Assembly (NCBI GenBank): GCA_021825655.1
Contig: JAKAGU010000001.1
Coordinates: 50,358 to 114,357, forward strand
From: a bacterium
GTDB taxonomy: Bacteria; Patescibacteriota; Doudnabacteria; UBA920
Direction of reading: 5' to 3'
DNA length: 64,000 nt
Shown here: piece after piece, positions 15,888 to 59,767 of the stretch
Layout: every line of letters starts with the position of its first letter
How positions within the stretch are numbered: the first letter of the stretch is position 1
Position numbers and translations under genes: made by a program
Notes under the pieces: generated by a model
What the model was told of the DNA's origin: nothing
Database searches by the model: none
Seen by the model: the letters and a program-made list of their open reading frames with translations, nothing else

Positions 15888-17516
15888 TCAGGAATGCGCA
15901 AAAGCTTGGTTGATCTCGGTTTCTTCCCAGCCCGCCCGCTGCAGTTCTTCCCGGATTTGCTGGTCAGTCAGTTCTACATTTCGGGCCTGTGTGATGAAGT
16001 CCACCAAGTGGGGGTGGGGCAGGTTTAAGGATAAGCGGCTCTGGGCATGCAGCTCTGTTTCCGGCAAAGGCAGGGGCGTGCCCGCGGCCTCCATTTTTTT
16101 AAGCAGCTCGTTTTTATGGTCTTCTTCGGCCTGTAGTTCAATTTCCAAAGCTTGGATTTGCTGCTCATCTTTTTTTAGGCGCCGGTAGAGGTGTTCTAAG
16201 GCCAGCAGGGCCAGGAGGATTAAAAGCAGCCGCCCGCCGACTACAAACCAGGTAAAAGCGTCAACCTTTTTGATGCTGGCCCAGAACTGCTGCCCCGCGC
16301 TGTCCAGGGATGTCCCGGCCGCAATTAAGTTTTCGCAGTTGGTGGTGTAATTGTCGAAGATCTTAGTACTGGTAAAATTTGGGTTTAGTTCCGCCGCTGC
16401 ATCAAAACTCTTCATAGCTTTTTGGCACTGCCGGGTGCGATAGTAGCCCGCAGCCTGTCGGAAGATTTCTGCGTACGGCCCTTCCGTATTGTTGACGTTG
16501 TTCTTTGTCAAAAACTCTTTGGCCAGATTAATAGGGATGGCAAAAGCAAAGTTGTCGCCTTTTTGCCTTAAGGCGTCGCCGGTCTGGAACGTAATAATGC
16601 CGATTACCCGGCCGTCTTTGTCCAAGAGGGGGCCGCCCGAAGAACCTTGGGAAATTTTAGCGTCGGTTTGAAAAATTTTAAACTCTTTGCTCTGGGCGAA
16701 CTTCAGCGCGCTGACCAGCCCTTGGGTGAGGGTGGCTTCGAGCGGGCTGCGGCCGTTGACTTCCGCGGTGGACGGAAAACCAAAGACCAGAATTTTATCA
16801 CCCGTGCTTACTTGGTTGCTGTCTCCCAGCAGTAGGGCCGGCAAGTTGCCCGCCTGGATTTTAATCAGGGCAACGTCCTTTTCGTCCGCGGCAAAATTAT
16901 TATTGGCACTGACTATGCTGGCCTCAAAACCGGTTTTCAATAACGAGGTCAGGTATTCCTGGGAGTCCGAGGGGTTGAGCACAGTGAGTTTGCTGACAAT
17001 ATTAAACTGTACCCGGTTTTTTAATGCTGCCAGGGAGTTTTGGTAAAAGTTATTAAAATTGTCAGCGTCTTTAAAATTTTGAAGCAAGGTTTGGTCGTCG
17101 AGACTGCCGAGTTTGGCTTGGAGCGCATTGTTTAAGAGTTCTTCCAAATAGCTTTCTTTAATGCTCTCTTCCGTGGCCACGTGGGCGTTGGTCAAAATAT
17201 AGCCGTCGGGGTTGACTACAAAGCCGCTGCCGCTCAGGTAGACATCAACTTTTTCCGCTTGTTGTGGCTGGTTGTCGGGAAAAACCAAAGCCGCTGCCGC
17301 CAAGTTTATTTCAAAATTCGGCAAAGTAACCTGGCCGCTGGCATGGTTGATAATCCGGACAATGCTCGGCTTGATCATTTGAGCCAGGTCCTGTTGGTCC
17401 AGCGGCTGGGCCGGGCCAGGCGCTTGAGCCTTTAAGCTGAGGTAGGCAGCCAGGCCGCATAAAAAAACGGCAAAAACCGCCACCAAGAATTTGGAATTGT
17501 ATTTTAGTTTCGTCAT
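15888..17516 (-). CDS. Membrane-anchored trypsin-like (S1C, HtrA-like) serine protease with a C-terminal TM helix and cytoplasmic tail
   Basis: Catalytic motifs GYILTNAHV and DAKISQGSSGGPLL. No PDZ domain is apparent. Start placed at the internal ATG (MTKLKYNSKFLVAVFAVFLCG, a signal anchor). The ORF-track extension up to 17738 is antisense to tRNA genes and is rejected. Confidence 0.7.
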   Translation of the reverse strand: MTKLKYNSKFLVAVFAVFLCGLAAYLSLKAQAPGPAQPLDQQDLAQMIKPSIVRIINHASGQVTLPNFEINLAAAALVFPDNQPQQAEKVDVYLSGSGFVVNPDGYILTNAHVATEESIKESYLEELLNNALQAKLGSLDDQTLLQNFKDADNFNNFYQNSLAALKNRVQFNIVSKLTVLNPSDSQEYLTSLLKTGFEASIVSANNNFAADEKDVALIKIQAGNLPALLLGDSNQVSTGDKILVFGFPSTAEVNGRSPLEATLTQGLVSALKFAQSKEFKIFQTDAKISQGSSGGPLLDKDGRVIGIITFQTGDALRQKGDNFAFAIPINLAKEFLTKNNVNNTEGPYAEIFRQAAGYYRTRQCQKAMKSFDAAAELNPNFTSTKIFDNYTTNCENLIAAGTSLDSAGQQFWASIKKVDAFTWFVVGGRLLLILLALLALEHLYRRLKKDEQQIQALEIELQAEEDHKNELLKKMEAAGTPLPLPETELHAQSRLSLNLPHPHLVDFITQARNVELTDQQIREELQRAGWEETEINQAFAHS

Positions 17517-17621
17517 GTTTTCTTTTTTGCAGTGTAACATAAAGCTGTAGAAAAAGCATCCCGGGGGGCGTTGAAAAAGCCCGCTAAATAAACTATAATA
17601 AGGTGAGCCAGAAAATTTTCG

Positions 17622-17690
17622 GGCGTAAGCTTGGGTTGGTAGAGCGGACGTCTTATACACGTCTGGTCCTAGGCCCGCCCCGTCACCCTT
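17622..17690 (+). pseudogene. Truncated or degenerate copy of tRNA-Ile(UAU): 5' two-thirds retained, no T-arm or acceptor 3' strand
   Basis: About 36 nt (ggttggtagagcggacgtcttatacacgtctggtcc) are identical to the downstream tRNA, and the flanking 5' portion is similar. The 3' part diverges (ctaggcccgccccgtcaccc) and cannot form a T-arm. Confidence 0.5.
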
Positions 17691-17698
17691 TAGTAAAT

Positions 17699-17774
17699 GC
17701 GCGCGTAGCTCAGTTGGTAGAGCGGACGTCTTATACACGTCTGGTCCCAGGTTCGAGTCCTGGCGCGCGCACCA
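17699..17774 (+). tRNA. tRNA-Ile (anticodon UAU), CCA encoded
   Basis: Folded by hand: acceptor gcgcgcg/cgcgcgc, D-arm gctc-agttggta-gagc, anticodon stem gacgt/acgtc, loop cTTATac (U33, anticodon TAT, A37), T-arm ccagg-ttcgagt-cctgg, then ACCA. Confidence 0.8.
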
Positions 17775-37318: not shown

Positions 37319-38875
37319 GTGATACAATATATCATATATGATATATTAACTTTTATTACTATGACTACCCAAAAGATGATTGGCCAGCTAATCTCCAGAC
37401 TCCGCGAACAAAAGGGTCTGACCCAGGCGCAGTTTGCGAGAAGCCTTAAAACCAGCCAGTCCGCCGTGGCCCGCATGGAAAACGGTTTGCAGAACCTGAG
37501 TACGGAAATGCTGGAAAAAATTGGGGACATACTGAAAAAACCCCTGATTGCGCTGGCGGGAGACTCGGTTAATTTAAGGATTGAGGGCGGCCACAAATTG
37601 TCCGGCCGGGTTGCCACCAACACTTCCAAGAACGCCGCCATGGGCCTTTTGGCCGCCAGCTTGTTGAACGCCGGGCAGACTACCTTAAAAAACGTGCCAA
37701 GAATTGAAGAGGTTAACCGGATGCTTGAGGTGCTTTCAAGCATCGGAGTCAGGGCTGAATGGCAGGGCCAGGATTTAAAAATTACACCCCCGAAAAAATT
37801 CAATCTCAAGAACCTAAATGCCGAAGCCGCGGTCAAAACCCGCAGTATTTTAATGCTTATCGGGCCGTTGGTGCATTTGTTTAGGCATTTTAAGTTGCCG
37901 GTTGCCGGCGGCTGCAAGTTGGGTGCGCGCACTATCCGCCCGCATTTATATGCTTTAGAGAAGCTGGGTGTGAATATCCAGACCAGCCACGACCAGTATG
38001 ATATTAGCGTGCAGGGTTTGGCGTCCGCAGAGGTAGTTCTTTATGAAACCGGCGATACGGTAACGGAAAACGCTCTGCTGGCCGCGGCCAAATTGCCGGG
38101 TAGGACCGTTATCAAATATGCCTCCTCGAATTATATGGTCCAGGATGTATGCTTCTTTTTGGAAAAGTTGGGCGTGCGGGTTGAAGGTTTAGGCACTTCC
38201 ACTCTGGTTGTTCATGGCAAGCCGGAAATTAAGGCGGACGTGGAGTACTATTTAAGCGAAGACCCGATTGAGTCCATGCTTTTTTTGTCCATTGCTGCTA
38301 CCACGAATTCCAGCATCACCATTGAGCGCTGCCCTATAGATTTTTTGGAACTGGAACTGCTTAAGCTGGAAAAGATGGGCTTGAAATTCCAAATCCAAAA
38401 ACACTATAAAGCCCGCAACGGCCGGACTAACCTGGTGGATATAAAAACTTTGCCTTCCAAGCTTACGGCTTTGGAAGAAAAGATTCATCCCCTGCCTTAC
38501 CCCGGCATTAACATAGATAACTTGCCGTTTTTTGTCCCAATTGCCACGCAGGCCGAAGGCTCTACCCTGATTCATGATTGGGTCTACGAAAACCGGGCCA
38601 TCTATTATTTGGAATTATCTAAACTTAGGGCCAATATCATCCTGGCCGATCCGCATCGGGTGTACATTGAGGGGCCTACGGAGTTGCGCGCGGCCGAGGT
38701 AATTTGTCCCCCAGCCTTAAGGCCAGCAGCAATTATTCTGATTGGCATGCTGGCGGCCAAAGGCACTTCGGTGTTGCGGAACGTGTACTCCATTTCCCGC
38801 GGCTACGAGGATCTGGTTAACCGGTTAAAAAAACTGGGCGCAAAAATTGAAATCATCAACAGTCTTGGTATATAG
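37319..38875 (+). CDS. murA: UDP-N-acetylglucosamine 1-carboxyvinyltransferase (MurA) with an N-terminal XRE-type helix-turn-helix fusion
   Basis: The likely start is the internal ATG near 37358 (MTTQKMIGQLISRLREQKGLTQAQFARSLKTSQSAVARMENG, an HTH_3/XRE pattern). The EPSP-synthase-fold MurA body begins at LRIEGGHKLSGRVATNTSKNAAMGLLAASLL. The catalytic Cys loop is retained (LPVAGGCKLGARTIRPH). Confidence 0.8.
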   Translation: MIQYIIYDILTFITMTTQKMIGQLISRLREQKGLTQAQFARSLKTSQSAVARMENGLQNLSTEMLEKIGDILKKPLIALAGDSVNLRIEGGHKLSGRVATNTSKNAAMGLLAASLLNAGQTTLKNVPRIEEVNRMLEVLSSIGVRAEWQGQDLKITPPKKFNLKNLNAEAAVKTRSILMLIGPLVHLFRHFKLPVAGGCKLGARTIRPHLYALEKLGVNIQTSHDQYDISVQGLASAEVVLYETGDTVTENALLAAAKLPGRTVIKYASSNYMVQDVCFFLEKLGVRVEGLGTSTLVVHGKPEIKADVEYYLSEDPIESMLFLSIAATTNSSITIERCPIDFLELELLKLEKMGLKFQIQKHYKARNGRTNLVDIKTLPSKLTALEEKIHPLPYPGINIDNLPFFVPIATQAEGSTLIHDWVYENRAIYYLELSKLRANIILADPHRVYIEGPTELRAAEVICPPALRPAAIILIGMLAAKGTSVLRNVYSISRGYEDLVNRLKKLGAKIEIINSLGI

Positions 38876-55226: not shown

Positions 55227-56282
55227 ATGGCCAAAAATACCAAAGCCCCTGCTGAAACGGGCAAATGGAAAGCGGTTGAGTCAGCGCTTGACCAGATAAA
55301 AGACAAGTTTGGCGACGGGAGCATTATGAAGCTCTCGGACACCAAAACCTTGGACATTGAAACCACGCCGTCCGGCAGCATTTCTTTGGATATCGCCTTG
55401 GGCGCGGGCGGCATACCCAAAGGCCGGGTAATTGAAATTTATGGTCCTGAGAGTTCAGGTAAAACCACTTTAACTTTGCATATGATTGCGGAGGTGCAGA
55501 AAAAAGGCGGCCTGGCGGCTTTTATTGATGCCGAGCACGCGCTTGATCCGGAATACGCAAGACGCATCGGCGTCCGCTTGGAAGACTTGTTGATTTCACA
55601 GCCGGACAACGGCGAGCAGGCTTTGGATATTTGCGAAACTCTGGTGAGGAGCAACGGGTTGGACCTAATTGTCATTGACTCTGTGGCCGCGCTGACTCCG
55701 CGCAACGAAATTGAAGGCGAGATGGGTGATTCGCACATGGGCTTGCAGGCCCGGCTAATGAGCCAGGCTCTAAGGAAGCTGACCGCCATAATTTCCAAAA
55801 CCCATACCACCGTGATTTTTATCAACCAGATTCGCATGAAAATCGGCGTGATGTTCGGCAACCCGGAAACCACCACGGGCGGCAATGCTTTGAAATTTTA
55901 CGCTTCGGTCAGAATCGAGGTTAGGCGGATTGCCCAGATTAAAGCCGCGGAGAAAATTATCGGCAACCGGGTGAAAGTGAAGATTGTAAAAAATAAGATT
56001 GCCCCGCCTTTCAAAACCGCTGAATTTGATATTATGTATAACGAAGGTATCAGTGCGGCCGGCGACCTGCTGGATACGGGGGTGGCCCTGGGGGTGATTG
56101 AGAAGTCCGGCAACACCCACCTATTCGGTGAAGTTAAGCTGGGGGTGGGCCGGGAAAACGCCAAAAATTTTTTGAAAGACAATCCGAAAGTTTTTAAAGA
56201 CGTGGACAAAGCCGTGCGCGATAAAGTCAAAAGCGGGGAGGCGGTGCCAAGCAAACCGGAAGCCGCTGACGAGTCCGAATAA
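55227..56282 (+). CDS. recA: Recombinase RecA
   Basis: 351 aa with Walker A (GPESSGKTT) and the RecA signature ([14 protein letters not shown]). Confidence 0.95.
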
Positions 56283-56288
56283 GATTTT

Positions 56289-56321
56289 GGCCCCTGCGGC
56301 TTGCCGCAGGGGCTTTTTTAT
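56289..56321 (+). terminator. Intrinsic terminator after recA
   Basis: GGCCCCTGCGGCttgCCGCAGGGGCttttttattt. Confidence 0.65.
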
Positions 56322-56340
56322 TTGAAAGTTAAATGATAAA

Positions 56341-58797
56341 ATGCAAGCTATGGGCACTGACAGACAAAGAAAATTAGCCAAAACTGGTTTTGTAAAGACT
56401 ATGAAAAAGCCTGGTATAAAAAAAATTGTTGAACCAGAAAACGAGGATGACGGCGCGCCGGTTTATTGCAGTCTGGATATTGAAACTACCGGTTTTGATC
56501 CGCTGACTGAAGAGATTTTGGAAGTCGGGTTCGTTTTCTTTAAAGCAACATCCGAGGGCCTGAAGCCGTTTCAGGAGTGGACTCAGGTTTTTTGCCCCAG
56601 CAAGCCGGTCAGTCCGAAAATTCTTGGCTTGACCGGGATTACTCCCAAAGAGCTGGCGGCCGCCCCGCAGTTTAAGGAGTTTAAAGATTTTTTGCAGGAA
56701 AAACTTGGCAATGCGGTGATTGTCGGCCACAACATAGCGTTCGATATTAAATTTTTGGAAAATTTCGGGATTAAGTTTTCTGGGGGCCAGCTGGATACTT
56801 TAGAGCTGGTGCAGTGGCTGCTGCCTTCCCACCATTCGTACAACCTGGAAAACTTGATGCACTTTTTTAAAATCCCTCATGAAGAGGCTCACCGGGCATT
56901 GGCTGACGCCAAAGCCGCGTTGCTGGTTTTGGAAAAACTTCTAGGACTTTATGCCGGGCTGCCCAGCCAAACCAGCGCCAGAATTTTAGAAATTGTCAAA
57001 CCTTTTCATTTTTCCTGGGCGCGGCTGCTTCCGGCTGCGGCCAATTTTAAGCCAAAGGCAGCGGCTTTGGGCAAAAAAAAAGCCCCGGAACGCAAAAAAC
57101 CAGCGAAGGCTGCCGGGGAATTCGAAGCTTTTAAACTTGCTCCGGGGATTTTGTATGACTTTCCTCTGTTTTCGCAGTATGCCGGTTGTTTGCTGGAAAA
57201 ACTAAAAGCCGCAAAACGCAAGAGTTTGCTGGTTGTGCCAAAGAAACAGCAAGTGATGGACATTTGGCGCTCCGGCCAGGCCCAAAGCGTATTTTTACCT
57301 GCTGAAAGTTTTGACCCCGCGCGTTTTGAAGCCATGCTGAATAAGGGCCAGCACACGCCGGAAGAAGCTAAGTTCTTGCTCAAGCTTTTGGTCTGGCAGG
57401 CTACGAATTGGCAACAACAGGGCTTGGGCGATTTAAACCTCACTTTTTTTGGAGGCCAGTTCAAATCCGCCGTTGCCCGGAGCGAGTTTTTGTTGGACGA
57501 AACAGCCAAGGTTTGGGTATGCGACACCCACACTTTTTTATCGCTGAGCCGCAATGGCGGGGCGCTGGCCGAACGCCTGGTCACGGTCATAGGCTTGCCT
57601 GAACTGGAAAACGCTTTAAGCCTGGGAATTAGCCACCGGGTTTCGTGGAGTTTTATCACCTATCTGCTAAAGTCCTATTACAATCCGGAAACTCAGACAG
57701 GCAGCCTAAGCTATGAAGCTACGGTGCAGAACGCCATTAATGAGGCCGATTTATTTTTTGGCTTGGCTAACGCTCTTTTAAAACAGAATCCCGCGGGGTT
57801 TGAATATTTTAAGGTTTTACCCGGCACGGAGCAGGCGGATAATTTTCAAAAGGTGAAACAAGCAGCCGCAAATTACGCTTTGAAATTATTGGAAACAGCG
57901 CAAAGCCTTGAAGCCGAAGCCTTGGCGGACACGGCGCGCAATTTGCAGGCATTTTTTGAAAACGTGCCCAATAGAGTAAAGTGGGTTGAATTGGCAGAGG
58001 GCCGTTGCATTTTTTATGACAATCCGGTGAATTTGAAAGAGCCTATGGAACGGGTAACGGCGGCCTGCGGCCAGTTGTGCTTTGCCGACAGCCTGTCCCA
58101 GCCCAAGGTGGTGGAGCTGTTTTTGTCCCGCTTGGGCCTGGATACTTTAAAAGTTAAAGGGGTACAGGCTGCTGCCCAGACCAGGCGTTTGCTCCAAGGT
58201 GATCTGTTTTCAGGCTGGCTGGGCCGGATAAAAGCCGAATGCCAGCTGCAGGCCAGCGGGCTTTTAGATTCTGAACTTAAGGCCTACCTGCAGCCCAGCA
58301 GCTTGCCTGCTGCGGTCCTGTTTGCCGGTCCCTTACAGGTTAAGGAATTTTATGAGAAGAACTACGAAGATCTCCAGGCGTATGCCAATGTCTTGAGCCA
58401 AAACCATTCCGGAGGCAGTAACAAGCTTTTTAGGAACTTTGAAATTTATCCGGAAAGCATCTTGCTGGCCACAGACAAGCTGATTTTGAAATATTTGACC
58501 GAGTCCGCGGGCAGCGCCTTAGATTTTTTGTCTGTAAAAACTCTGATTTTGGGCCACCTGCCTTTTGAACAGTACACGCACCCCTATTTGGAAGCGGTAG
58601 CAGGCACCTATGAACGGCCGTTTGAACAGTTCAGTCTGCCTCGGGCTGTATACAATTTAATCAGAATTTTACGCTTTTTCTATACTAACAAGCTAAAACA
58701 CGTGGTAATAGCCGACCCTAAGCTTTCTAAGGAATATGCCAGTGCCTTTGTTGCTTTGGTCCAAAAAATCCCGGGTTTTCGGGTTAAAGTGGGTTAA
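56341..58797 (+). CDS. DinG-like protein: N-terminal DEDDh 3'-5' exonuclease domain fused to a Rad3/DinG-like helicase-like domain with degenerate ATPase motifs
   Basis: 818 aa. Exo I DIETTG, Exo II HNIAFDIKFL and Exo III HRALADAKA are intact. The C-terminal ~600 aa resemble the DinG helicase C-region (motif VI-like RILRFFYTNKLKHVVIADPKL, motif V-like AAVLFAGPL) but no Walker A GxGKT/S is found, and WVCDTHTF replaces DEAH. Confidence 0.6.
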   Translation: MQAMGTDRQRKLAKTGFVKTMKKPGIKKIVEPENEDDGAPVYCSLDIETTGFDPLTEEILEVGFVFFKATSEGLKPFQEWTQVFCPSKPVSPKILGLTGITPKELAAAPQFKEFKDFLQEKLGNAVIVGHNIAFDIKFLENFGIKFSGGQLDTLELVQWLLPSHHSYNLENLMHFFKIPHEEAHRALADAKAALLVLEKLLGLYAGLPSQTSARILEIVKPFHFSWARLLPAAANFKPKAAALGKKKAPERKKPAKAAGEFEAFKLAPGILYDFPLFSQYAGCLLEKLKAAKRKSLLVVPKKQQVMDIWRSGQAQSVFLPAESFDPARFEAMLNKGQHTPEEAKFLLKLLVWQATNWQQQGLGDLNLTFFGGQFKSAVARSEFLLDETAKVWVCDTHTFLSLSRNGGALAERLVTVIGLPELENALSLGISHRVSWSFITYLLKSYYNPETQTGSLSYEATVQNAINEADLFFGLANALLKQNPAGFEYFKVLPGTEQADNFQKVKQAAANYALKLLETAQSLEAEALADTARNLQAFFENVPNRVKWVELAEGRCIFYDNPVNLKEPMERVTAACGQLCFADSLSQPKVVELFLSRLGLDTLKVKGVQAAAQTRRLLQGDLFSGWLGRIKAECQLQASGLLDSELKAYLQPSSLPAAVLFAGPLQVKEFYEKNYEDLQAYANVLSQNHSGGSNKLFRNFEIYPESILLATDKLILKYLTESAGSALDFLSVKTLILGHLPFEQYTHPYLEAVAGTYERPFEQFSLPRAVYNLIRILRFFYTNKLKHVVIADPKLSKEYASAFVALVQKIPGFRVKVG

Positions 58798-58918: not shown

Positions 58919-58952
58919 CTTGACACGCCGTAAATACCCTGATATGATGAAT
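58919..58952 (+). promoter_or_regulatory. Near-consensus sigma70-type promoter
   Basis: TTGACA, 17 nt spacer, TATGAT. Perfect DnaA boxes at about 58808-58816 (TTATCCACA) and about 58963-58971 (TGTGGATAA) flank it. Confidence 0.5.
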
Positions 58953-58954
58953 AT

Positions 58955-59395
58955 ACTGAAGTTGTGGATAAAGAGCACTTTAAAAACTCAATAACTGGAC
59001 TGAGGAAAATAGCCTTAAATTGTTGAGATTGAAGGTTGCTTTCCTCTTAACTCCTCGTCATAGCCTGTCCAATCCAGGCTGATTGCAAAACAAAAACAAA
59101 AAAATGAAGTTGCCTCTCATCCCCATGAAGGCAAAAGGCTGTTTCAAAATAAAACATGCCCCAAAAATTGTTAGGTCTTCGGACCCCAAGAGGAGTTTTG
59201 AGTGCAGTTTTAAAGCAGATTGGGCATAAAACGCTTCTCTTTGGCTGTTATGCCAAAGAAGGCCTGAATCGCCAGAGTGTTGGCTTCTGCGTAACTAGTT
59301 TACGCGGATACCATCCGAGTGATTTGGGTTACAAGCGCCCAAGGACGGCTGACATATTATTTTAATTTGCAGCGCCCGTCGGGGCGCTTTTTCAT
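58955..59395 (+). ncRNA. Candidate unclassified structured RNA (~440 nt) or long regulatory leader
   Basis: No ORF of 60 aa or more on either strand across about 660 bp. Bounded by a consensus promoter and an intrinsic terminator (AGCGCCCgtcgGGGCGCTttttc). Contains at least five perfect hairpins (agcctg/caggct, GGTC-UUCG-GACC, ctttggc/gccaaag, gcgtaa/ttacgc, and the terminator). Confidence 0.3.
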
Positions 59396-59461
59396 TTGTA
59401 TTGGAATTTCGGGTGGGTTATAATATCGGCACAGCCTAAAAAATTTAAAAAGACTCTATAT

Positions 59462-59767
59462 ATGTTATCGCAAACATTTGTTGAAGAAATGAAGCAGAAG
59501 CTGCTTGACGCCAAGGCCAAGTTTGAGCAGGACCTGGCCGGGCTTTCGCCGCACACCGAGCTCGGCAACGGCATGGACGAAAGCGCTGAAGAGCTGGAAA
59601 TAGACGAGGTTAACCAGGATATGATTGTGCGCCTCAATGCGGATCTGGCAAAAATTGCCAAAGCCCTGGAGAAAATTGAAAAGGGCACCTACGGTACGGA
59701 TGACGCGGGCCAGGAAATTACCGAAGCCCGGCTGAAAGCTTTACCCTGGGCTGACAAGGCAATGTAA
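59462..59767 (+). CDS. DksA/TraR (YocK-like) family protein lacking the Cys4 zinc finger
   Basis: Start at the internal ATG (MLSQTFVEEMKQKLLD...). The C-terminal EKIEKGTYGTDDAGQEITEARLKALPWA aligns with the DksA/TraR zinc-finger region, but all Cys are replaced. Confidence 0.5.
   Translation: MLSQTFVEEMKQKLLDAKAKFEQDLAGLSPHTELGNGMDESAEELEIDEVNQDMIVRLNADLAKIAKALEKIEKGTYGTDDAGQEITEARLKALPWADKAM

Follow-up and report, generated by a model that had tools for sequence, protein, structure and literature searches.

A DEDDh exonuclease carried on a degenerate DinG-type helicase body in Doudnabacteria

The locus and the exonuclease domain

The window analysed here is a 64,000-nt stretch of DNA from a member of the Doudnabacteria (UBA920), taken from GenBank assembly GCA_021825655.1, contig JAKAGU010000001.1, positions 50,358-114,357 of the forward strand. 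It contains, downstream of recA, an open reading frame (ORF) for an 818-residue protein in which an N-terminal DEDDh 3'-5' exonuclease is joined to a body related to the DinG helicases. The protein is referred to below as ExoDinG-like, after the exonuclease-DinG fusions (ExoDinG) that it resembles in architecture. The gene is followed by a structured RNA gene. Coordinates of the features are collected in Table 1.

Table 1. Features at the ExoDinG-like locus (positions are those of the window; residues are those of the listed ORF)
Feature	Position	Strand	Evidence or remark
recA, upstream neighbour	55227..56282	+	ORF translation; RecA_N/RecA_C Pfam matches on orthologous neighbours
Intrinsic-terminator-like hairpin and T run	56289..56324	+	hairpin 56289-56314, 11 bp, 9 G-C pairs; terminator scan, sequence
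ExoDinG-like pseudo-helicase exonuclease ORF	56341..58797	+	818 aa; ORF list; homologs of 754-823 aa
DEDDh 3'-5' exonuclease domain, residues 42-200	56464..56940	+	Pfam RNase_T, DEDDh_C; catalytic D46, E48, D135, H184, D189
Linker, residues 201-268	56941..57144	+	three helices, then Lys/Ala-rich segment predicted disordered (DSSP, pLDDT)
Motor-domain-1-like lobe, first half, residues 269-335 (approximate boundaries)	57145..57345	+	aligns with canonical ExoDinG motor domain 1
Walker A (P-loop) remnant F274-P-L-F-S-Q-Y280	57160..57180	+	opposite canonical A-G-T-G-T-G-K-T (MAFFT with transitional sequences)
pFeS-like insertion, residues 336-390 (KLLVW..TNWQ..LNLTFFGGQF)	57346..57510	+	aligns with canonical 'KILIWL..T.TGDLDELNL'
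Motor-domain-1-like lobe, second half, residues 391-445	57511..57675	+	holds DTHT 57523-57534 and motif II remnant T415-E423 57583-57609
Arch-like helical domain, residues 446-545 (approximate boundaries)	57676..57975	+	
Motor-domain-2-like lobe, residues 546-818	57976..58794	+	profile match to S. aureus DinG 636-878; weak Helicase_C_2
Structured RNA gene (RNA ~58955-59393)	58920-59393	+	promoter 58920-58948, terminator 59371-59388

Database searches with the ExoDinG-like protein returned hundreds of relatives of ~750-820 aa from Patescibacteria, many labelled Candidatus Doudnabacteria, at 93-98% coverage and 39-92% identity. Because these homologs are near full length, the reading frame is not a chance ORF. 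The database names carried by the family, 'Pol III epsilon-like' and '3'-5' exonuclease', are corrected by the analysis below. The true start of the protein is probably M21 (56401) and not the first codon listed, since the closest homolog (P0001, 92% identical) begins at the residue aligned with M21, conservation in the family does not reach upstream of residue ~38, and in the AlphaFold2 (AF2) model residues 1-37 score below 50 in the predicted local distance difference test (pLDDT) and are predicted to be disordered.

The exonuclease domain was matched by Pfam RNase_T over residues 45-196 (E 4e-20) and by DEDDh_C. Its three motifs are DIETTG (D46, E48), HNIAFD (D135) and HRALAD (H184, D189), and the five catalytic residues were invariant in 223-225 of 225 aligned relatives. 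All three motifs with their catalytic residues had been read from the sequence in the preliminary description of the locus, and the domain matches and the near-invariance across the family bear this out. Sequence matches to known structures were the PolC exonuclease (2p1j) and the exonuclease domain of Staphylococcus aureus DinG. The best NCBIfam models were the DnaQ-exonuclease/DinG-helicase fusions TIGR01407 and PRK08074, which matched the query through its N-terminal ~200 residues alone, far under the cut-offs. In the linker that follows, residues 244-258 have pLDDT <50.

The helicase-derived body

Sequence-only searches of the C-terminal region (Pfam, NCBIfam and phmmer against the PDB) recovered the exonuclease domain alone. 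A family profile gave a colinear but marginal match to residues 636-878 of S. aureus DinG over the C-terminal 250 residues (8zef, i-Evalue 0.47), and Pfam Helicase_C_2 was matched weakly by 27 of 40 family members. Because these searches were nearly silent on the region, profile-profile and fold comparisons were needed. Two canonical ExoDinGs recovered in an exhaustive search (P0223 and P0239) were used as the reference, and the profile comparison with them was decisive. The family profile was aligned to this reference with hhalign at a probability of 100% and E 2.9e-51 over 737 columns; in global mode the alignment extended over 760 columns with E 1.9e-77. The AF2 model of the protein was confident, with a pLDDT of 85.6 and a predicted template modelling (pTM) score of 0.81. 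The top Foldseek matches to this model were S. aureus DinG structures 9ii8 (E 4e-31) and 8zef (E 3.5e-30), with template modelling (TM) scores of 0.59-0.64, followed by E. coli DinG, CasDinG and XPD.

The homology is full length, and the protein is therefore predicted to contain every part of an ExoDinG, namely the exonuclease, a motor domain 1 that carries a pFeS-like insertion, the Arch domain and motor domain 2. The DinG/Rad3 resemblance that the preliminary description had seen in the C-terminal ~600 residues is upheld by both approaches. Profile comparison and structure prediction had also been proposed there as a check on this region; run here with hhalign, AF2 and Foldseek, they recovered RecA-like lobes and allowed the missing catalytic residues to be mapped. 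In the model, residues 269-335 form a strand-loop-helix-strand-helix unit, with strands at 270-273 and 295-299 and helices at 281-290 and 302-310. A single cysteine is present in residues 330-399, and other members have one or two. An iron-sulfur (Fe-S) cluster is therefore not expected in the pFeS-like insertion, which is of the pFeS type found in Bacillales ExoDinG.

Motif columns were read from a MAFFT alignment of 223 full-length non-canonical relatives and two canonical ExoDinGs. At the aligned Walker A column, G-K-[ST] was found in 0 of the 223. The canonical 'EAGTGTGKT' faces 'YD-FPLFS-QY' in the query, and the transitional sequences EAGPGTDR, EAGVGTEK and EAGVGTGKY align at the same place ('ILYD-FPLFS-QY'). 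This placement is supported by those sequences and by the strand-loop-helix at 270-290 of the model, and the same two observations led to the rejection of a candidate in which 'LLVVPK' was taken as strand beta1 with a shrunken P-loop. Scattered GK[ST] strings in homologs were also rejected as P-loops, being located out of register in the exonuclease domain or linker. Under either the hhalign or the MAFFT alignment, no phosphate-binding loop is left, so the absence of a Walker A motif claimed in the preliminary description extends from the query to 223 of 223 full-length non-canonical relatives.

At motif II, the canonical 'IIDEAHHLE' faces 'TVIGLPELE' (T415-E423), with D replaced by I417, E by G418, A by L419 and H by P420; D-E at this column was retained by 3 of 223 relatives. 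The earlier statement that the DEAH box is degenerate is thus correct for the true position (IGLP), but the DTHT string to which it was assigned (D395-T398) is not that box: it falls opposite the canonical 'VVNHALL' strand that follows the (p)FeS domain, and so corresponds to NHAL. The motif VI-like RILRFFYT...ADPKL had been placed correctly, as it aligns with QGFGRLIR...ILDSRL. Within this remnant (N772-T782, 58654-58686) 'RILRFFY' faces 'QGFGRLIR', and no arginine is conserved across the family.

A motif scan of 259 retrieved proteins found AGTGTGK[TS], DE[AG]H and QGFGRLIR in the two longer canonical ExoDinGs alone. The Pfam models DEAD, ResIII and DEAD_2 were matched by canonical ExoDinGs of the candidate phyla radiation (CPR) and unmatched by the degenerate family. 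The loss of all three motifs predicts that single-stranded DNA (ssDNA)-dependent ATPase activity and 5'-3' helicase activity are absent.

The nucleic-acid track of motor domain 2 has a different pattern. In S. aureus DinG (SaDinG), K801, F804, F823, R858 and Y864 contact ssDNA, mutation of any of the five abolishes unwinding, and the K801A, F804A and F823A proteins are clearly weakened in DNA binding (PMC12345164). These residues correspond, by profile alignment and the hhalign map, to H739, F742, F761, K794 and Y799 of the query (58555-58737). Among 149 core members, position 739 is R, H or K in 114, 742 is F in 123, 761 is F in 130, 794 is K in 126 (R in the distant group and in the canonical proteins) and 799 is Y in 127. 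Mean pairwise identity was 65% for the exonuclease domain, 41% for the scaffold and 26% for the linker, the lowest value of any region. Within the scaffold it is highest in the pFeS-like segment (TNWQ...LNLSFFGGQF; 53.5%). This pattern points to selective loss of the motor with the nucleic-acid track retained, rather than to general decay.

Full-length relatives at 34-66% identity were present in ~57 species-representative genomes. The labels of these genomes are Doudnabacteria, 'Patescibacteria group', 'uncultured Saccharibacteria' (a generic label) and 'MAG: bacterium', that is, Patescibacteria-type metagenome-assembled genomes or 'bacterium'. Gracilibacteria, Peregrinibacteria and related groups commonly have canonical ExoDinGs; those of locus L066 (Peregrinibacteria, L066:5001-7646) and locus L070 (Peribacteria, L070:5001-7667) carry GTGxGKT, DEAH and QGFGRLIR. 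The proteins of L062, L063 and L064 are degenerate to varying degrees. L064 (5001-7307) is partly decayed, with EAGVGTGKY and LEAE, as is P0206, with EAGVGTEK. P0258 keeps IDEAHHLE and has lost the P-loop (EAGPGTDR at Walker A). L063 (5001-7334) has the fully degenerate form. The simplest reading of this series is descent of the family from an ATPase-active CPR ExoDinG through stepwise motif loss, and the series from L066 and L070 through P0258, L064 and P0206 to L063 would help in working out which motif was lost when. No Doudnabacteria label was found among the 120 best matches to a canonical CPR ExoDinG helicase. Nine other large ORFs of the window were scanned and contained no helicase, canonical DinG included. 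Neither observation is decisive on the presence of a canonical DinG in these genomes.

recA, the downstream RNA and the rest of the window

As described previously, recA lies directly upstream with a terminator in between (Table 1). The two genes are separate transcription units. Around homologs of 41-47% identity the gene order is conserved as HSP20, FtsK, RodZ-like, RecA, ExoDinG-like, a gap, a 101-aa ORF, LspA, ComM and GalU. recA was found upstream on the same strand in 48 loci. In 26 of these it is directly adjacent (<=450 bp), and in 22 a further 0.5-4.1 kb is inserted, the inserts including other genes. No recA was found within 5 kb of the distant Peregrinibacteria-type homologs.

Between the ExoDinG-like gene and the ORF that follows lies a gap of 650-960 bp whose nucleotide sequence is conserved in all 52 genome loci (nhmmer E 1e-13 to 1e-110), although the flanking proteins share only 35-47% identity. 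A near-consensus promoter was found, with TTGACA at 58920-58925 and an extended -10 element TGATATGAT at 58940-58948, both at least 90% conserved; the terminator is conserved also. RNAalifold on 37 sequences gave 70 pairs, of which 49 show compensatory double changes. The share of paired cells in the proposed structure is 95.8%; shuffles give 81.8% and slid controls 32-50%, and none of 500 shuffles reached the observed values. Among the features of the RNA are a long-range helix, a hairpin (AGCCUG-UCCAAUC-CAGGCU) that is conserved, and a tract rich in A, CAAAACAAAAACAAAAA. Instead of forming the local hairpin, the 3' half of the terminator can pair with an AGCGCC segment that lies upstream.

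Neither the window nor any of 25 related loci had an Rfam 15 match, whether thresholds were set at gathering or permissive levels, and ARAGORN found no tmRNA or tRNA in 53 RNA copies. A likeness by eye to the P4 strand of RNase P or to the tmRNA tag region was not upheld by the covariation-supported structure. The element is an independent structured RNA of ~440-620 nt that has no Rfam family match. All 52 Doudnabacteria-type genome loci whose sequence reaches the following ORF have one copy; homologous segments are, for example, L005:7490-7964 and L012:7518-8010.

A metagenome scan for the RNA motif returned 77 loci. Where at least 1.3 kb of upstream sequence was available, the ExoDinG-like gene preceded the RNA in 32, and in 10 (B-type, from a sister lineage) the order was FtsK, RodZ-like and RecA, then the RNA within 170-630 nt, with no ExoDinG-like gene. 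Divergent B-type copies of the sister lineage include L127:12818-13222 and L149:5348-5571. One RNA copy, L085:1148-1686 (- strand; 318 bits), is an exception to both arrangements: in the ~1.5 kb upstream neither the ExoDinG-like gene nor recA is detectable. Because the RNA follows recA without the ExoDinG-like gene in the sister lineage, the gene occupies a slot within an older block of recA, RNA, small ORF and lspA, and its adjacency to recA is best explained by synteny.

The conserved 101-aa ORF at 59462-59767 (+; listed as 59396..59767) follows the RNA gene in all related loci. Its C-terminus, GTYGTDDAGQEITEARLKALPWA, resembles by eye a DksA/TraR zinc-finger region minus the cysteines, and Pfam returned nothing for it at E<=1e-5. 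The ORF probably has its own promoter, TTGTAT-17-TATAAT, at 59395-59423.

The other content of the window is that of an ordinary chromosome, including DnaA, a class A penicillin-binding protein, GyrA, IF-2 and Mur ligases. ARAGORN located a tRNA-Ile with anticodon UAU (gene TAT) at 17699-17774 (+), an uncommon bacterial means of reading AUA. This tRNA overlaps the listed 5' end of a 616-aa trypsin-like protease ORF (15888..17738, -), and the start of that ORF therefore probably lies further downstream. A 518-aa ORF at 37319-38875 (+) has an N-terminal HTH_3/HTH_31 match (residues 22-76) and a full EPSP-synthase-fold (MurA/AroA-type) domain; it is either an unusual fusion or the product of an over-extended GTG start.

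Interpretation and comparison with known systems

The computed results establish the homology, the predicted fold and the motif loss, and show that the catalytic residues are invariant and the DNA-contact positions kept. From these the protein is, we consider, probably a descendant of ExoDinG with an intact exonuclease and a pseudo-helicase core whose ATP site is gone, acting as an ATP-independent 3'-5' exonuclease on ssDNA tails. The preliminary description had likewise proposed an exonuclease on an ATPase-dead DinG scaffold kept for nucleic-acid binding, and homology, motif loss, the invariant catalytic residues and the motor domain 2 contacts all support that proposal. What we infer beyond the computed results is the substrate, the polarity of threading, the lack of ATP binding and the cellular role.

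Because the motor domain 2 contacts are kept and the motor is lost, a passive, polarity-defining clamp is proposed. The scaffold would bind single-stranded nucleic acid along the conserved track of motor domain 2. In XPD-family helicases the 5' side of the bound strand lies on motor domain 2 and the 3' side is directed toward motor domain 1 and the FeS/Arch pore. The strand would be threaded with the same fixed polarity, toward motor domain 1 and the pFeS/Arch region, as in these proteins and in the SaDinG-ssDNA structure, in which motor domain 2 binds seven nucleotides and the exonuclease site four. The clamp would then present the 3' end to the DEDDh site. Such an enzyme would digest ssDNA tails 3'-5' with high affinity and might also act on RNA, either in hybrids (for example the RNA strand of R-loops) or free, as Listeria DinG does; it would neither unwind duplexes nor be regulated by ATP. 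By analogy with the ExoDinG of Firmicutes, it may process 3' ends when replication is under stress or DNA is repaired. An ATP-independent clamp is consistent with the behaviour of Bacillus subtilis DinG, whose ATPase neither stimulates nor inhibits degradation.

Several points weigh against this reading. All structural statements rest on a predicted model. The placement of the P-loop is ambiguous, hhalign treating it as a deletion and MAFFT setting it opposite FPLFS-QY, which leaves the exact remnant uncertain. Two arginines of the query, R775 and R778, lie close to motif VI, K or R is frequent at 778 in the family, and 'YNFPL' is moderately conserved at the former P-loop; for these reasons a remodelled ligand pocket may be present at the former ATP site. 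Crosslink repair in S. aureus needs both helicase and nuclease activities, and a nuclease-only ExoDinG may therefore be unable to fill that role.

A mainly RNA-directed 3'-5' exoribonuclease, acting in quality control or maturation of rRNA or structured RNA with the scaffold as an RNA-binding module, would differ from the preferred reading in substrate alone. The Listeria ExoDinG removes unprocessed rRNA (PMC12774634), the S. aureus and B. subtilis enzymes degrade RNA or the RNA strand of hybrids, and at all 52 Doudnabacteria-type genome loci the highly conserved structured RNA gene follows at a distance of 150-300 nt. The retained contact positions, however, were defined on ssDNA, and the B-type loci, with the RNA right after recA and no ExoDinG-like gene, imply that the RNA needs no adjacent copy of the nuclease. 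We regard this alternative as possible but unlikely.

It is quite improbable that the protein is an accessory factor of the RecA pathway, with the dead helicase body as a platform for recruitment to RecA or the replisome. recA is upstream on the same strand in 48 loci, and B. subtilis DinG and its Walker A mutant K290A both bind RecA in vitro (PMC12525004). A strong terminator lies between the genes, however, and they are separate transcription units, 22 of the 48 loci are interrupted, in the sister lineage the RNA gene comes right after recA, and the distant homologs lack a nearby recA. The adjacency is also not specific, since the whole block from FtsK and RodZ-like through RecA to LspA, ComM and GalU is syntenic. 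In the genomic evidence a recA operon or functional link finds no support apart from synteny, and the tie to recA implied by the preliminary description is weak.

A more speculative proposal, to which we attach little probability, is that the helicase body has been repurposed, with YNFPL, TNWQ, LNLSFFGGQF and DLFFGL forming an ATP-independent threading or recognition module. The protein would then be a dedicated CPR nuclease for RNA 3'-end maturation or quality control, possibly for the downstream ~440-nt RNA.

That the core is a working ATPase or translocase using non-canonical residues is very improbable. The scaffold is strongly conserved, and R775, R778 and the conserved P300-K301 after strand beta2 could be cited as candidates, but these residues are not conserved family-wide. 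At least 220 of 223 members have together lost the Gly-rich loop and its Lys, the two acidic residues of Walker B and the arginine finger, and the DEAD, ResIII and DEAD_2 matches of canonical CPR ExoDinGs are missing. Least credible of all is a DnaQ/Pol III epsilon-type proofreading subunit, or a C-terminal part that is a functionless decaying remnant: the JGI name is 'DNA polymerase III epsilon subunit-like protein' and the exonuclease domain matches epsilon and PolC exonuclease structures, but the NCBIfam dnaQ models fall below their curated cut-offs (TIGR00573, 54.0 vs 71.5; TIGR01406, 42.2 vs 222.7), the protein has 818 aa with ~550 extra residues homologous to the DinG helicase body where DnaQ is small (~240 aa) with a C-terminal polymerase-binding tail, and a scaffold kept at 41% identity with invariant motifs while the linker diverged to 26% is unlike a decaying remnant.

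The preferred reading, an ATP-independent nuclease on a former helicase, bears directly on the question of whether ExoDinG proteins need a helicase motor in the cell. Early work reported no helicase activity for S. aureus DinG, which was later shown to unwind DNA. A reduced-genome lineage that has long kept the exonuclease, the fold and the ssDNA track without the ATP site is a natural separation-of-function experiment. It suggests that a core ExoDinG function is that of an ATP-independent nuclease held on a helicase-shaped clamp.

Compared with known systems, the protein shares with ExoDinG an N-terminal DEDDh exonuclease with a complete catalytic set, an XPD/DinG-type body with two RecA-like motor domains, Arch and (p)FeS insertions and full-length homology, and motor domain 2 ssDNA-track positions kept in 114-130 of 149 core members. 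It departs from ExoDinG in that the superfamily 2 (SF2) motifs Walker A GxGK[ST], DEAH and QxxGRxxR are all missing. The Firmicute ExoDinGs (S. aureus DinG 8ZEF/9II8, B. subtilis and Listeria monocytogenes DinG) keep Walker A, DEAH and motif VI and hydrolyse ATP, and SaDinG unwinds 5'-tailed duplexes; the CPR family has lost all three motifs and is ~80-100 residues shorter. Canonical CPR ExoDinGs (L066, L070, Gracilibacteria and others) share superphylum and architecture with the query family and align with it over the full length. They retain GTGxGKT, DEAH and QGFGRLIR, have ~870-1000 aa and are matched by Pfam DEAD, ResIII, DEAD_2 and Helicase_C_2. P0258, P0206 and L064 are transitional and connect the two.

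E. coli DinG, archaeal and eukaryotic XPD and CasDinG lack an exonuclease domain and are 5'-3' helicases driven by ATP. A 4Fe-4S cluster is present in DinG and XPD, and the four or three cluster-coordinating cysteines of their motor domain 1 insertion are lacking in the ExoDinG-like protein. CasDinG is CRISPR-associated. A defence-system or CasDinG identity was rejected: the PADLOC model typeIV_DinG matches the ExoDinG-like protein at E 0.006 only, the other matches are confined to the exonuclease domain, and the neighbourhood is housekeeping and syntenic.

A parallel in kind is pExoDinG (e.g. Caulobacter vibrioides; reviewed in PMC11981726), which is likewise a fusion in which one module has become a pseudo-enzyme with its fold kept. 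ExoDinG and pExoDinG are both defined in the 2025 review of DinG-like proteins, in which Patescibacteria go unmentioned and dead-helicase forms have no subgroup (PMC11981726). Literature searches on DinG together with Patescibacteria, the results of which were polluted by author names, and on a pseudohelicase joined to an exonuclease found no earlier description of such a protein. pExoDinG combines an incomplete exonuclease centre with intact ATPase sites and an Fe-S-containing helicase, and the CPR family is its mirror image, the exonuclease being intact and the helicase dead. The current DinG-like classification thus lacks a class for an ExoDinG whose exonuclease is active and whose body is a pseudo-helicase, a form conserved throughout this lineage of ultra-small CPR bacteria.

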